The notes beneath the pieces are model-generated. The model was not told the origin of the DNA. It did no database searches and saw only the letters and a list, made by a program, of their open reading frames with translations. This document shows positions 10,356 through 36,487 of a stretch of 64,000 bases of DNA, one piece after another. Location of the stretch: contig CAXXLZ010000001.1 in NCBI GenBank assembly GCA_963675595.2, forward strand, positions 1,408,001 to 1,472,000, given 5' to 3'. The position numbers were made by a program, and so were the translations under genes. The number at the start of each line of letters is the position of its first letter. Position 1 is the stretch's first letter. The DNA is from Thermodesulfobacteriota bacterium. Its GTDB lineage: Bacteria > Desulfobacterota > Desulfarculia > JACQYL01.

Positions 10356-10775
10356 TCAGAAGAAACCAAACAACCCCCGGTCCTTCTTCTCCTGCATCAC
10401 GCCTTTACGCTCTCTGGCCGACGCCGCAATGCCGGCGAGCTTCTCCAATGACTTCGCGAACCTGCTCGAAAAGACCCAGCCTTCCCGATAACCGTGCCGC
10501 TTATTGAAGCGAGAGACGTGGTCAATCAGCCCCATACGCCGCATCTTACTTCGGACGGTTTCGAGGATTCTCGATGAAAAACTGTATTTATTGCATAACG
10601 GCTGAAGGGTGCTCAAGAATTCATGCTTAGCATACTTGAGTTCGATGAAGATTGCGAGAAAAACTCGCTGATGGTTCTTGTTGGCTGGGAATAGGATAGC
10701 CGCGAGTTCATCCAGGTCCCGAGTCCTCGCGATCTTGTTATGGCTGAGTTCGATTTTGGTGCTGACGGTTGCCAT
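10356..10775 (-). CDS. Hypothetical basic protein, possible winged helix
   Basis: The ATG at 10775 overlaps the upstream TGA (GAGGTGATG). The segment ILETVRSKMRRMGLI...GWVFS is wHTH-like. Confidence 0.6.
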   Translation of the reverse strand: MATVSTKIELSHNKIARTRDLDELAAILFPANKNHQRVFLAIFIELKYAKHEFLSTLQPLCNKYSFSSRILETVRSKMRRMGLIDHVSRFNKRHGYREGWVFSSRFAKSLEKLAGIAASARERKGVMQEKKDRGLFGFF

Positions 10776-11143
10776 CACCTCGTATGCCGGCACCGGCCGA
10801 TGGCCGGCTTACCGTAACCATTCTCTTTCAGGGCTTCCTTCCGCAGTTCGACTCGTTGTTTCGCGATTTCGAGAGCCATGCCCCTAAGCTCAGTGCCAAA
10901 GGTATTTTCAACCCAATAAATCGCCTCATAGGCCGAGACGTACTTGTCACCAAAGAGCCTTTGAAACCGCCACCTGATTCCCTGGCGGGTGAGCCCAAAG
11001 GTATTCTCGATCTTGTCGCCGTAATTTCTGCGCAATACGAACCGCTTCAGGCCGTCCTCCTTCAGTTCAATCTTGAGGTCTCTATCGTCGATCAACATCT
11101 TGAGCTTTTCAATGAACTCCTTGTCCTTTTCAGTCAATTTCAT
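10775..11143 (-). CDS. Hypothetical protein, possible HTH (FGLTRQGIRWRF)
   Basis: ORF overlapping both neighbours in a three-gene operon. Confidence 0.6.
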   Translation of the reverse strand: MKLTEKDKEFIEKLKMLIDDRDLKIELKEDGLKRFVLRRNYGDKIENTFGLTRQGIRWRFQRLFGDKYVSAYEAIYWVENTFGTELRGMALEIAKQRVELRKEALKENGYGKPAIGRCRHTR

Positions 11144-11945
11144 TATAGGGCGGCTCGATTTCGATATCCGAGCCGTATTGTGTGACCCGCACTTCCCCAT
11201 CCTGAAGCAGGAAAATCAGAGCCATAAATCGCATCGCCCGATCTCTCCGGGCATTATCGATCAGGAGATCAATCCTGGAAAACAGGATTTGTTGACACCT
11301 GTGAACCGAATCCAGGATATGGCGTCTGTACCGGGACAGCCCAGGAAGATTCCCAGTCAGGGAGAACTCCTCGCCCCAAACTCCCGCGTCAAAACCCATG
11401 AAACCCGACAATGCTTCAGTAAACCCAGGCAAACGATCAAGCCGTGGTTCCTCCAGTAACGCCAACCCGCCCGACCGCTCTTCTCGACGGGCGAGCCTCA
11501 TCATCTCTCTTCGCCTTCTTGCCTTGGCTCTCGATTCAGCCATCCGTTGCCGGAAATAGGCTCGGTCGAAGACCCGTTCATCGAACAAGAACCGGGACGG
11601 CACGGTCTTCCCACAGGAAGCGCACGCATAATGAAGACTCCGCCTGACCAGCTTTGCTCCGCAGCAGCCGCTCCTTTGAAACACCACTGTGGGGTCGAGT
11701 TCATGGCCGCTCGGACAAACGGCCAGACCTGCCTCCAGCATCCGAAGTTTTTCACCGCATAGAGGACACAAATGATTCGCCAGCATAACGTCGTAGTAGT
11801 AGTCTCGGGCCGCAGCCTTGTATTGAGCAACGCCGAAAACAAACTCCCCGATAATCCGGCCGACGGCCGCCTCCGGCTCTTCCAAGTCAGAGACCATCGC
11901 TGAGTGTTCGCCAGACTGAGCCGGTTCCGGTGTTCCGCATTCCAT
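11130..11945 (-). CDS. Zn-ribbon protein with ScpA/kleisin-like C-terminal winged helix
   Basis: Cys clusters CPLC, CPSGH, SGCC and CASC. The C-terminus RFMALIFLLQDGEVRVTQYGSDIEI resembles the ScpA FLALLEL..G.V.V.Q...gdI motif. Confidence 0.55.
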   Translation of the reverse strand: MECGTPEPAQSGEHSAMVSDLEEPEAAVGRIIGEFVFGVAQYKAAARDYYYDVMLANHLCPLCGEKLRMLEAGLAVCPSGHELDPTVVFQRSGCCGAKLVRRSLHYACASCGKTVPSRFLFDERVFDRAYFRQRMAESRAKARRRREMMRLARREERSGGLALLEEPRLDRLPGFTEALSGFMGFDAGVWGEEFSLTGNLPGLSRYRRHILDSVHRCQQILFSRIDLLIDNARRDRAMRFMALIFLLQDGEVRVTQYGSDIEIEPPYNEID

Positions 11946-11968
11946 ATTTATTGGGAAGCAGAGCTTTC

Positions 11969-12016
11969 TTATAAACATTTCTCTCCCACGCCGCAGAATT
12001 CGGAAAAGTTTATATA
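11969..12016. promoter_or_regulatory. Divergent BRE/TATA-like promoter pair
   Basis: Minus strand GAAATGTTTATAA (11981-11969) lies ~25 nt before ATG 11945. Plus strand GAAAAGTTTATATA (12003-12016) precedes GAGGTGA and ATG 12051. Confidence 0.5.
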
Positions 12017-12050
12017 CACCAGGGCCTTACCAAGTCCCGAGGTGATACCG

Positions 12051-12194
12051 ATGCCAAGACCCTATAAGTGCCCATATTGCGGCGCAACCCAAAGCCACTG
12101 GAAAGGATACAGGCCCCTTGTCCAGGGAAAAGTCCGGCTCCGGATGTGCACCAAGTGCCACCGGAAGTTCACGACTCGAGTTAAGATCGAATAA
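12051..12194 (+). CDS. Small Zn-ribbon protein (47 aa, InsA-like pattern)
   Basis: MPRPYKCPYCG...KGYR...RLRMCTKCHRKFT, with SD GAGGTGA at 12039-12045. Confidence 0.6.
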   Translation: MPRPYKCPYCGATQSHWKGYRPLVQGKVRLRMCTKCHRKFTTRVKIE

Positions 12195-12209
12195 CCACCG
12201 GACGGACCG

Positions 12210-34201: not shown

Positions 34202-34286
34202 GCCCGCCGGAGGCGGGCCCCGCCCGCAGGGCGAGGGGCGTTGGGTTCGTTAGAACCCGACTCACCGTGAACCCCATGGGGTTCAC
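34202..34286. repeat. Cluster of four GC-rich hairpins, including a 20-bp perfect palindrome
   Basis: GCCCGCC-GGA-GGCGGGC; GCCCCGCCC-GCA-GGGCGAGGGGC; GGGTTC-GTTA-GAACCC; GTGAACCCCATGGGGTTCAC. Confidence 0.85.
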
Positions 34287-35020
34287 CAACCCATTCCCAT
34301 CAAATTTCCATCGAACCGCTCCGATCCGAAAAGACCCCGAAGTTCCTTCTCCGGTCTTCCTCGGATCATAAGGTGACGATTTCCCAATCCCTAAAATCCG
34401 AATCTTCGGACATACCAAAACCAACCCCACCCGATCACACCACCGTCGCGGAACCAATCACTCATCTTCCCGGCGGTAGGATACTCCAACCGGAAGCAGC
34501 CGCTCCGGACCACTCTCCCCTTCCAAAGAAGCATGCAAGCACCCGTTCAACGGATCGCATGCGCAACCCAAGTGTTCTTCCCGGTCACCGGCACACTTCG
34601 GAACCAGGGTCTTCAGTGTCACACGAAACCCGCCCTTTTACATGAATAGCGCCACCCGGCTCGTACCGATACGACCCGGCATGGCCGCTTCATCGAGCGC
34701 TTGCCCAAACGAAAGCCGCAACGGCTCGCCCTTCTTGAAAGCGCTCAACGGTAATTCCCGCTCGCGGCACGAATTGCCGGCGACAATCATTACCACAAAC
34801 ATGGCCATGAAAAGGACGCCACTGACCGGCCTCATGGCCTTGCCCATCTCGCTCCGAGATGAAAAACTTTCGGCCGATGCCCGGAGCACCGGACATCCGA
34901 CCGCAAAGCTTATTAAGGAGCCGTCCTCAACTCTCCATACGCAGAGCGCATAGAGGAGAGCAACCATTCAAACGACTCCGTCGCCGCTCTGCCGAAAAAC
35001 CGACGTTCTAACACAACGAA

Positions 35021-35575
35021 TCAGGGGCCCTGCTGCCCCTGCCAAATCTCCGCCGCTTTCTCGACGAGCCCGACAAGCTCCCTTGCCTTGCTGCGATGCT
35101 CGAAAGCCTGCTCATGATCGCGAGTTACTTGGGACAGTCTCATGTGCTCCACTGCCGGGCCCATGAACTCATCCTCGATAAGAAACATCGCTCTCCCCAG
35201 CGTGTTCCGCTTTCCCTCTTCATGGGAAAGACAGCTGTGCATGATCGCCAAGTCCCGAATCCCCTCGAGCACTTTCCCGATCCTGTAGCGCCGTTTGTCC
35301 ACTTCGAACTTCCCGCAGACTCGCTCGAAGTCCCAGGTATTGAAAGCGCTCTCAGAATCCGACCAGTCGAACCATGCTCGGGTCTGGCCCTGTTCAGCTA
35401 CCCGCATGATGGGCTCGTGCTCGCTCTGCACATACCAGGCGATGAATTCCAGGGTCTCGTCTTTCTCGTCGTCGCTGTATCCAAGCCAAGGATCGCTGTT
35501 TCGTAAAATCTTCAGTCCTGCGGGTACCGGTGCGTCGAGTACGCTATATTCAACTACAACTTGTTCTTGTTTCAT
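35021..35575 (-). CDS. Hypothetical protein
   Basis: 184 aa ORF with a GGAGG SD. Confidence 0.65.
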   Translation of the reverse strand: MKQEQVVVEYSVLDAPVPAGLKILRNSDPWLGYSDDEKDETLEFIAWYVQSEHEPIMRVAEQGQTRAWFDWSDSESAFNTWDFERVCGKFEVDKRRYRIGKVLEGIRDLAIMHSCLSHEEGKRNTLGRAMFLIEDEFMGPAVEHMRLSQVTRDHEQAFEHRSKARELVGLVEKAAEIWQGQQGP

Positions 35576-35825
35576 GATGCCTTCCTCCCGGGGTCCGATT
35601 CATTGACCGGACTCTCTCGGCTGTGTATTCACCGAGAGAGTGGAGTTCTGCATCCAGGAAAACAGCAACGCCAAACCCTGATAAACCGATCCGCCAACGG
35701 ATGGAACTTGTTTTCAGGCGACCCTTGAAGAGGGGAAAGGCTTAAATAGGGCTTTCGGCGATGGGGCCGAATCCCATTTATGCCTTTAGCCGTGAAGAAA
35801 ACGGTAGTTACTCGTCACCGATACC

Positions 35826-36110
35826 ATGTCGATACGCCTATCCTATAATCCGGAAGAGCTTCTTCGCTTTGATCCAGAAACTGGATATGCTACAATCGAC
35901 TGCATGGACTATACCAGACAGCGCCTCAAGCCCTGGCAACGCCTCGGCATTACCAAAAGGCAGTACCTCATCAGTAAGCCATGGAAAGGGACCGATCTGT
36001 CCAGAGAGAAGTACGAGGAAGTTATCTCGGTCGTACCACAGGAGCATTTGAATGATCTGAAGATCGAGGCAGAAGCTGAAGCTTTGGTCGAAAGGTTGTT
36101 TGGCGTATAA
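35826..36110 (+). CDS. Hypothetical protein
   Basis: 94 aa ORF downstream of the GAAAGGCTTAAATA motif. Confidence 0.55.
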   Translation: MSIRLSYNPEELLRFDPETGYATIDCMDYTRQRLKPWQRLGITKRQYLISKPWKGTDLSREKYEEVISVVPQEHLNDLKIEAEAEALVERLFGV

Positions 36111-36169
36111 TCCCTTGCAATGCCTTTCATCTTGAATCATAGCAGCACTTTTCTGGATGCGGGGATAGG

Positions 36170-36487
36170 ATGTGGGTGATCGATATTAGACATTGGCTCA
36201 ACGAAGACAAAACAGGCCCGGCGGTTCCGCAGCTGAGATCAAAGGTCGGAAAAATGGCTGAAATCATCATCTTTGCCACCTCGTTTGACAAGGGCCTAAC
36301 GACCGCCCATTCACCCACCTGTTGGCGAAAGCCAAACCGAAAACCCTGCAAGGGACAGTTGGAAATTCATTTCACAGCAGAGGATCGGATACACTGGATT
36401 TGTCCGGTCTGCGGGGATGAAGGAGTGCTCATGGGATTTCGAGGTCTCATCTGGGACATGACCAATGGGATAGGGACGGCTCACTGA
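36170..36487 (+). CDS. Small Zn-binding hypothetical protein
   Basis: C..KPNRKPC.G.L...I.W.CPVCGDEG. Confidence 0.65.
   Translation: MWVIDIRHWLNEDKTGPAVPQLRSKVGKMAEIIIFATSFDKGLTTAHSPTCWRKPNRKPCKGQLEIHFTAEDRIHWICPVCGDEGVLMGFRGLIWDMTNGIGTAH

Follow-up and report, generated by a model that had tools for sequence, protein, structure and literature searches.

A probable conserved backbone with a predicted archaeal-type replication module in a family of large tRNA-integrating islands of a Desulfobacterota genome

In tRNA-targeting islands, be they integrative and conjugative elements (ICEs), integrative and mobilizable elements (IMEs) or genomic islands, an integrase gene is located at the tRNA gene and a repeat of the tRNA 3' end at the far end, and these islands show a conserved backbone with variable cargo, atypical G+C content, patchy distribution and several copies per genome. 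[quoted passage not shown] Orc1/Cdc6-type initiators paired with box-flanked origins are regarded as characteristic of archaea and eukaryotes. In published accounts, AICEs integrate in tRNA genes and have their own replication function (PMC2440964), and archaeal origins are AT-rich unwinding elements flanked by origin recognition boxes (PMC5333045). Here, we describe a 64 kb stretch of DNA (the window, C1:1408001–1472000) from a Thermodesulfobacteriota bacterium (assembly GCA_963675595.2), the genome of which comprises 6.79 Mb in three contigs (C1–C3) with 56% G+C. The window contains a block of about 26 kb (10355–36496; coordinates without a contig name refer to the window), which encodes an Orc1/Cdc6-type initiator (cdc6) and a HerA-type ATPase, and which is probably the conserved backbone of a family of large (about 76–130 kb) tRNA-integrating islands with site-specific recombination and a predicted replication module. 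The island family belongs to a known kind of element, the tRNA-integrating island. What is unusual about it is the archaeal-type initiator with its origin, the lack of recognisable conjugation genes, and a homing intron. Literature searches, which covered open listings and abstracts and not subscription journals, returned no paper describing bacterial Orc1/Cdc6 islands.

A search of the genome with the block identified four copies at 88–98% nucleotide identity, the other three being located on C2 (903702–927179, 4271208–4298435 and, inverted, 1628647–1658055). Based on a genome-wide recombinase search and a tRNA scan, each copy lies inside a tRNA island with a tyrosine recombinase and 45–49 bp attachment (att) repeats. 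Island A, at tRNA-Arg(TCG), has its attL core start at C1:1402442 and its attR core start at C1:1494191 (91.7 kb). For island B, at tRNA-Val(TAC), these positions are C2:868025 and C2:998373 (130.3 kb), for island C, at tRNA-Phe(GAA), C2:4229909 and C2:4305481 (75.6 kb), and for the inverted island D, at tRNA-Arg(ACG), C2:1712089 and C2:1618672 (93.4 kb). In every island attR is a perfect direct repeat of the tRNA 3' end (48, 45, 48 and 49 bp in the four islands), each att core occurs exactly twice genome-wide, and the attL–attR spacing ranges from 75.6 to 130.3 kb. The recombinase gene, of Pfam family PF00589, was found 143–170 bp from the tRNA gene and on the same side of the block in 4/4 islands; that of island A (C1:1402505–1403614, minus strand) scored 90.7 bits against a cut-off of 27.1. 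Together, the four islands amount to about 391 kb, or 5.8% of the genome, and have a G+C content of 52–53% compared with 56% for the genome.

The entire window is thus interior to island A (C1:1402442 to C1:1494238), with the attL core 5.6 kb to its left and the attR core 22 kb to its right. The original prediction had seen in the block an integrase-less element of an undescribed class, a reading that arose because only the conserved core was viewed and that the tRNA islands contradict. Its alternative, that the window with its kinase cargo belongs to a larger element with mobility genes beyond the window, is correct, since the tRNA, the recombinase and the perfect att repeats frame island A.

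Gene order and orientation are identical across the four islands: tRNA/attL, tyrosine recombinase, a 77-amino-acid (aa) membrane protein, a 390-aa membrane/coiled-coil protein, variable cargo, the block, variable cargo and attR. The tRNA and recombinase genes are always on the side of the block's 145-aa gene, 15–54 kb off, in the same relative orientation. In island A, the 77-aa and 390-aa proteins are encoded just left of the window, and both are 90–99% conserved among the islands. The block is flanked by convergent hybrid histidine-kinase genes, 6034–10338 (+) and 36570–40037 (−), and its immediate flanks differ from copy to copy. The left homology edge among the four copies falls at 10348–10368, i.e. 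within 20 bp of 10355, and the right edge at 36496 in copies A and C and at 36125 in copies B and D, which have in common another end of 1.25 kb. These edges bear out the limits of about 26 kb between convergent kinase genes that had been proposed from the sequence of the window. Block proteins are mostly 81–99% identical among the islands, and the differences between copies are concentrated at third codon positions in the genes judged real.

Such edges could also be those of an autonomous, integrase-less element that inserted, or was copied through recombination, into four tRNA islands that were already present and are not related to each other. The sharpness of the edges and their presence in all copies agree with this explanation, as does the fact that the blocks are 88–98% identical while the integrases of the four islands share 43–53% identity and the cargo is unrelated. 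However, no direct or inverted repeat longer than 14 nt links the block ends in any of the four copies, where just chance-level matches of 9–14 nt were found, and the ends show no target duplication. No integrase, recombinase, relaxase, type IV or other secretion, or virion family was found among the block ORFs scanned with Pfam and PHROGs (the family scans left out several small block ORFs and most cargo of islands B–D); both negatives agree with what had been noted from the sequence. Furthermore, the order and orientation of the block relative to the tRNA and integrase are constant in 4/4 islands, the integrase-proximal 77-aa and 390-aa genes are conserved like the block, the 390-aa gene adjoins cdc6 in compact relatives (see below), and the right edge is not the same in A/C and B/D. 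We therefore consider an autonomous block improbable. In the backbone reading, the edges would be the junctions of a conserved backbone with island-specific cargo, mostly two-component signalling genes, and not the ends of a mobile unit. A search of the plasmid collection at the DNA level gave no match.

The arrangement of relatives in other genomes points in the same direction. Of 95 genomes of the class, source genome included, 9 yielded HerA relatives and 4 yielded Cdc6 relatives, and two genomes (G027 and G014) have two cdc6-bearing loci each. Scans of contigs and metagenomes, which are samples and no census, gave at least 8 and at least 20 loci with Cdc6 relatives, respectively. Integrase orthologues with 54–57% identity are located beside tRNA-Arg(CCT) in G014, tRNA-SeC in G076 and tRNA-Arg(CCG) in G081, all of the same class, and adjoin cdc6 and/or HerA modules. 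The genes for the 282-, 141- and 145-aa proteins were beside cdc6 in 9 of 17 loci from other genomes, a locus being counted if it had a Cdc6 relative and at least 2.7 kb on its downstream side. A 16 kb metagenome contig (L060) carries DUF2958, HerA, the nuclease, the 201-aa and 390-aa genes, cdc6 with its three followers and the 184-aa gene together, so the co-occurrence of cdc6, HerA, nuclease and followers that had been put forward as a check is indeed seen elsewhere. In Desulfosarcina, the 184-aa gene comes after cdc6 and the HerA module comes third, which is the order obtained by joining the two block ends of the present genome. Homologues of the 390-aa protein are encoded directly beside cdc6 in four compact loci (L049, L050, L060 and L064), which indicates that the integrase-proximal genes and the block form one backbone, split here by cargo. 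Because the backbone genes co-occur in L060 and in Desulfosarcina, this backbone is older than the cargo by which it is now divided in the present genome. In G027, the repeated element extends 2.5 kb past the 145-aa gene (C291:34762–36189) and includes 159-aa and 310-aa ORFs; the boundary of the copy falls immediately beyond the 310-aa gene, beside ORFs labelled, by reading of their sequences, as SEC-C-motif and nucleotidyltransferase-like.

The initiator gene (12210–13484, −) encodes an AAA+ protein of the Orc1/Cdc6 family with matches to Cdc6_C (86.1 bits), Cdc6_lid (43.8 bits) and AAA_22. It scored 253.8 bits on TIGR02928, for which the curated cut-off is 181.3, and aligned over its full length with the archaeal Orc1 structures 2qby_A and 2v1u_A from Sulfolobus and Aeropyrum with E-values of about 1e-51 (for 2qby_A, 2.8e-51 over Cdc6 residues 58–410). 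An alignment of 24 homologues shows no variation in the Walker A and B motifs. There are exactly four cdc6 genes in the genome, one per block, all of them open, and the four copies differ at 27, 4 and 187 sites in codon positions 1, 2 and 3, respectively; the gene is well conserved and clearly under selection.

Upstream of cdc6 is an origin-like region (13467–13945). Boxes like TCCACCGGAAAC were found there in both orientations, at 13467 (+), 13571–13584 (−), 13778 (+) and 13932 (+), and flank a stretch of 89% A+T at about 13600–13720. Boxes with at most one mismatch occur three times in the 64 kb window, all within this region, and the background density of boxes is 0.22 per kb. At least two boxes were present at 7 of the 9 cdc6 loci examined, and an upstream stretch of at least 79% A+T at 8 of the 9. 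The layout also recurs in the four copies of the genome itself, except for the region cut by an insertion sequence (IS) in island D. With an AT-rich stretch flanked by boxes, it matches the architecture of archaeal origins, and the boxes may resemble the consensus of archaeal origin recognition boxes. The claim of a cdc6 gene with an origin agrees with these results for a predicted origin, and the broader claim of archaeal-like replication and DNA-processing genes is supported for Orc1/Cdc6 and this origin, but not for HerA and the nuclease. The module resembles archaeal Orc1/Cdc6 origins in its initiator above the family cut-off and its adjacent AT-rich element with inverted repeat boxes, and differs from them in its bacterial host and in that no MCM was found.

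The nearest relatives of Cdc6 (58–69% identity) were, among the matches listed, in Desulfobacterota genomes or metagenomes, and the named hosts among those matches (58–64%) were Desulfatiglandales, strain NaphS2, Desulfopila, Desulfosarcina variabilis and a Desulfarculaceae genome. Cdc6 matched 418 records of the plasmid collection at less than 60% identity, and 85 of the 85 among the matches listed were archaeal, with 22–31% identity. With the patterns used, no relative was found in the viral contig collection, and the phage collection contained just two matching records, both of haloarchaeal viruses, at 23% identity.

On the other side of the origin, and diverging from cdc6, lies the gene for a 150-aa protein (14607–15059, +). 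Its structural model (predicted local distance difference test, pLDDT, 83.9) gave weak best matches that were nearly all oligonucleotide/oligosaccharide-binding (OB) fold single-stranded DNA-binding proteins (SSBs), among them PRD1 P12 (Z 5.6, root-mean-square deviation 3.8, 91 residues aligned) and a gp32 complex (Z 5.1), so that the modelled protein weakly resembles an OB-fold SSB. The original prediction had named two candidate SSBs; the weak OB-fold model supports this one, whereas the second, a 102-aa protein (26811–27119, −), has no family or Protein Data Bank (PDB) match. Downstream of cdc6 are three conserved genes, encoding a 282-aa (11130–11978, −), a 141-aa (10775–11200, −) and a 145-aa protein (10356–10793, −), of which none has a family match. 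The model of the 282-aa protein (pLDDT 82.6) shows a long helix, Zn-ribbon strands, which correspond to weak Pfam matches, and a C-terminal winged helix. This gene had been described as ScpA-like with a Zn ribbon. The Zn ribbons stand, but the kleisin likeness was not confirmed: the winged helix matched kleisin C-domains (Foldseek E 3.7e-3, VIA Z 7.4–7.9), and many unrelated winged helices scored equally well or better, up to Z 9.3. Neither a Pfam ScpA match of the protein nor an SMC partner in the block was found.

The HerA module comprises a HerA/DUF87 ATPase of the HerA/FtsK superfamily (28286–30262, −), an overlapping gene for a PDDEXK_1 nuclease with a weak Cas4 match (30259–31029, −), a 53-aa protein (within 28286–31795, −) and a 201-aa protein (31190–31795, −), and these four genes are syntenic in relatives. 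HerA-plus-nuclease pairs are known as anti-phage systems, and the block could be a non-mobile chromosomal defence or DNA-repair cluster that was multiplied by segmental duplication. Weak HerA and Cas4 matches in PADLOC and NCBIfam, as well as other large duplications in the genome, would fit such a cluster; one duplicated segment of at least 14 kb with AddB-like and UvrD/AddA-like genes (C2:1658200–1672000 and C2:4709207–4723314) is 96% identical between its copies. All defence matches, however, were far under family level. The HerA protein scored 22.6–72.3 bits on family models with cut-offs of 600–970 (HerA_antiphage, 35.6 vs 800; HerA_Thermprot, 22.6 vs 800) and at most 33.5 bits on the PADLOC HerA models, and no SIR2 or DUF4297 partner was seen by the gene. 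Moreover, every copy is framed by att repeats, tRNA targets and integrases, the G+C content is unlike that of the genome, and relatives have a patchy spread over Desulfobacterota orders. A duplicated defence or repair cluster is therefore highly unlikely. As in HerA–NurA and HerA-based defence, the gene of a HerA/DUF87 P-loop ATPase overlaps that of a nuclease, but the nuclease here is PDDEXK_1/Cas4-like and not NurA, SIR2 or DUF4297. With models far below their cut-offs and a Cas4-like partner, membership in either group was rejected.

Some membrane-containing viruses have packaging ATPases of the FtsK/HerA superfamily, and the islands could thus be proviruses of an undescribed kind with the HerA/FtsK-type ATPase as packaging motor. 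A weak PHROGs match to the terminase large subunit, limited to the P-loop region of HerA, and the many block genes of no known family are in keeping with this idea. Against it, no capsid, portal, tail or terminase family was detected among 10 core proteins searched against PHROGs, which did not include several proteins of the block and the bulk of the island cargo, or among those block ORFs that were scanned with Pfam, the viral and phage collections gave only the matches to Cdc6 described above, and a length of 76–130 kb with mostly signalling cargo is atypical for a provirus. The provirus explanation seems very remote.

Six Pfam families were searched genome-wide, two for VirB4, one for the coupling protein and three for relaxases, other relaxase families not being included. 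PF03135, PF12846, PF02534, PF03432 and PF08751 had 0 matches genome-wide, and PF07514 had one match of 28.7 bits, outside the islands. With the searched VirB4, coupling-protein and relaxase families absent from the islands, they were not classified as ICEs of the type IV secretion kind. The islands share with ICEs, IMEs and genomic islands the features listed at the outset and are unlike them in having none of these families and in a replication module of the archaeal Orc1/Cdc6 type instead of a bacterial Rep, DnaA-like or primase type. Like AICEs, they use tRNA sites and carry a predicted replication module of their own. Unlike AICEs, which have a TraB with an FtsK/SpoIIIE domain, their ATPase matches DUF87/HerA only and has no FtsK_SpoIIIE match, they are 76–130 kb long, and their host is a Desulfobacterota genome.

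Several observations weigh against the interpretation of the block as the backbone of mobile, replicating islands. The integrases are only 43–53% identical while the block proteins are 81–99% identical, which, judging from these sequences, may mean that the block has been exchanged among islands or that integrase modules have been swapped, and in island C an IS breaks up the integrase. In other genomes, one island of G014 (G014a) has the cdc6 module without the HerA module, the G076 island has the HerA module and no cdc6 was found in that genome at E ≤ 1e-40, and since each carries just one, the two modules are separable. A distal att repeat was not found in the fetched sequence of G014, G076 or G081. 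The block has no gene for an MCM or another replicative helicase, and the genome yielded no true MCM: a search with PF00493 gave weak partial AAA matches only (at most 35.6 bits), in other ATPase genes. In island D, the origin homology ends at the IS, and the AT-rich stretch there has just 64% A+T. Finally, no excised circle or empty site was seen in public runs, which consist of metagenome contigs only and are uninformative either way: the attL region is present in four of them, but the tRNA depth is swamped by other organisms and gives no usable joint. An exact empty site for island A could not be defined, as the left-flank genes are syntenic in three relatives (G001–G003), yet neither the tRNA nor the island is next to them there, and G002 and G003 are without island genes but lack the tRNA too. 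Just past attR of island A is an IS gene, to which the genome has 26 matches. Copy D is flanked on its right by a gene with multiple paralogues and on its left by the AddB-like gene, which is itself part of a duplication in the genome; a search of 12 relatives did not detect the AddB-like protein.

Taken as the backbone of such islands, the block suggests the following course of events. The integrase would recombine attL with attR and release a circle. The element's own Orc1/Cdc6 would bind the inverted boxes at the predicted origin, and the circle would replicate from the AT-rich origin beside cdc6, with the OB-fold neighbour and the three small proteins downstream of cdc6 as putative accessories. 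The HerA-type ATPase and Cas4-like nuclease, RadC, DUF2958, DUF3150 and the AAA/DUF1257/DUF2997 trio may serve DNA processing in transfer or establishment, a role assigned on the basis of their constant presence in the backbone. A bolder and rather doubtful extension is that the islands replicate as episomes from the archaeal-type origin via their own Orc1/Cdc6 in MCM-less cells, recruiting the host DnaB or the HerA-type hexameric ATPase, and spread independently of type IV secretion, the HerA/Cas4-like module and the conserved membrane proteins being their transfer machinery. The islands offer a concrete system in which to ask how an Orc1/Cdc6 initiator could function together with the replisome of a bacterium and how replication modules pass from one domain to another. 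Having no recognisable conjugation genes, they are candidates for an undescribed transfer route, and, as they carry dozens of sensor-kinase genes, they are a major vehicle for the expansion of signalling in these relatives of sulfate reducers.

The AAA ATPase gene of the block was present as predicted, but its division into two exons (24043–25032 and 20999–21481, −) had been missed. The exons are separated by a group II intron of 2,561 nt (21482–24042, −) that starts with GTGCG and ends with AC, in keeping with the GUGYG and AY ends of such introns. Its domain V/VI region (21482–21571) matched RF00029 with 73.4 bits against a cut-off of 40, and it encodes a reverse transcriptase/maturase/HNH protein (21571–23433, −) with RVT_1, Intron_maturas2 and HNH domains. 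In-silico removal of the intron gave an open frame of 490 aa, which aligns along the uninterrupted gene of G014. The genome has five copies of the intron with 99.96–100% identity, all of which occupy a single position in the AAA gene of the islands, and none elsewhere; the further copies are located on C2 at 913088–915648, 1643189–1645749 and, as two head-to-tail copies in island C, 4282096–4287217. As the copies are near-identical and confined to the islands, the intron has spread recently among them, and on these sequences it is an intron that homes to one backbone gene, AAA.

The remaining block genes were largely as predicted, with family matches for HerA, the Cas4-like nuclease, RadC (26283–26777, −), DUF2958 (25457–25774, −), DUF1257 (20631–21002, −), DUF2997 (20424–20624, −, with the match at 20472–20612) and DUF3150 (19026–19901, −). 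Besides the Zn-ribbon protein of 282 aa there is one of 121 aa (25921–26286, −), both with weak Pfam matches. Further proteins of 97 aa (within 25087–28071, −), 99 aa (27772–28071, −) and 184 aa, the last one conserved (35021–35575, −), a 94-aa ORF (35826–36110, +) and a 105-aa Zn-finger ORF (36170–36487, +), present in copies A and C only, complete the set. In PADLOC, PHROGs and NCBIfam, no family was found for the 145-, 141-, 282-, 150-, 201- and 184-aa proteins or for DUF3150, PDB sequence searches were empty for the 145-aa, 102-aa, DUF3150 and nuclease proteins, and nothing of use on the 150-aa and 184-aa proteins came from the protein atlas. The block has two internal variable regions, at about 13.6–19.0 kb and 31.5–34.9 kb, and its right end is likewise copy-specific. 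In copy A, the first region contains genes for PRiA4_ORF3 (14012–14515, −), a LuxR-type response regulator (15199–15918, −), a 199-aa protein (16366–16965, −) and an FkbM methyltransferase (17751–18638, +). In island D, the same region (C2:1648700–1651797) encodes an ankyrin-repeat protein and a fusion of an inositol-monophosphatase-family protein with an ADP-ribosylglycohydrolase, and the second region a VWA-domain protein and a weak radical-SAM-like ORF. A 620 bp insert (27086–27708) occurs in copy A only, with a 120-aa ORF (27388–27750) of no known family.

The cargo of island A consists mostly of signalling genes, namely PAS hybrid kinases, HD-GYP and sigma-54 response regulators, a chemoreceptor and a KaiC-like ATPase, together with IS copies. 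The two-domain KaiC-family ATPase (C1:1406517–1407980) has the integrase-proximal genes on one side and the first giant kinase on the other, and island C has a 96%-identical partial match to it (284 aa). To the right of the block, the cargo (36570–63316) comprises hybrid PAS histidine kinases, the chemoreceptor, two rhodanese genes and two IS copies. Island D has in tandem with it a fifth, unrelated island of 47.6 kb (C2:1571114–1618720). This fifth island ends at another, third repeat of the tRNA-Arg(ACG) att core and encodes its own tyrosine recombinase, 27% identical to the island A integrase. An intergenic repeat of about 250 bp (40077–40329) has 7 further copies with 70–84% identity on C2 and C3. 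The two IS copies of the window, at 50005–51394 (DDE_Tnp_1) and 59170–61057 (DDE_Tnp_1_6 with DUF772), are found elsewhere in the genome as 14 and 20 near-identical copies, respectively. The first abuts a kinase ORF (51221–55102) that stops inside its HisKA domain and the second a PAS-only ORF (60848–63316), and both ORFs appear to have been truncated by the IS insertions.

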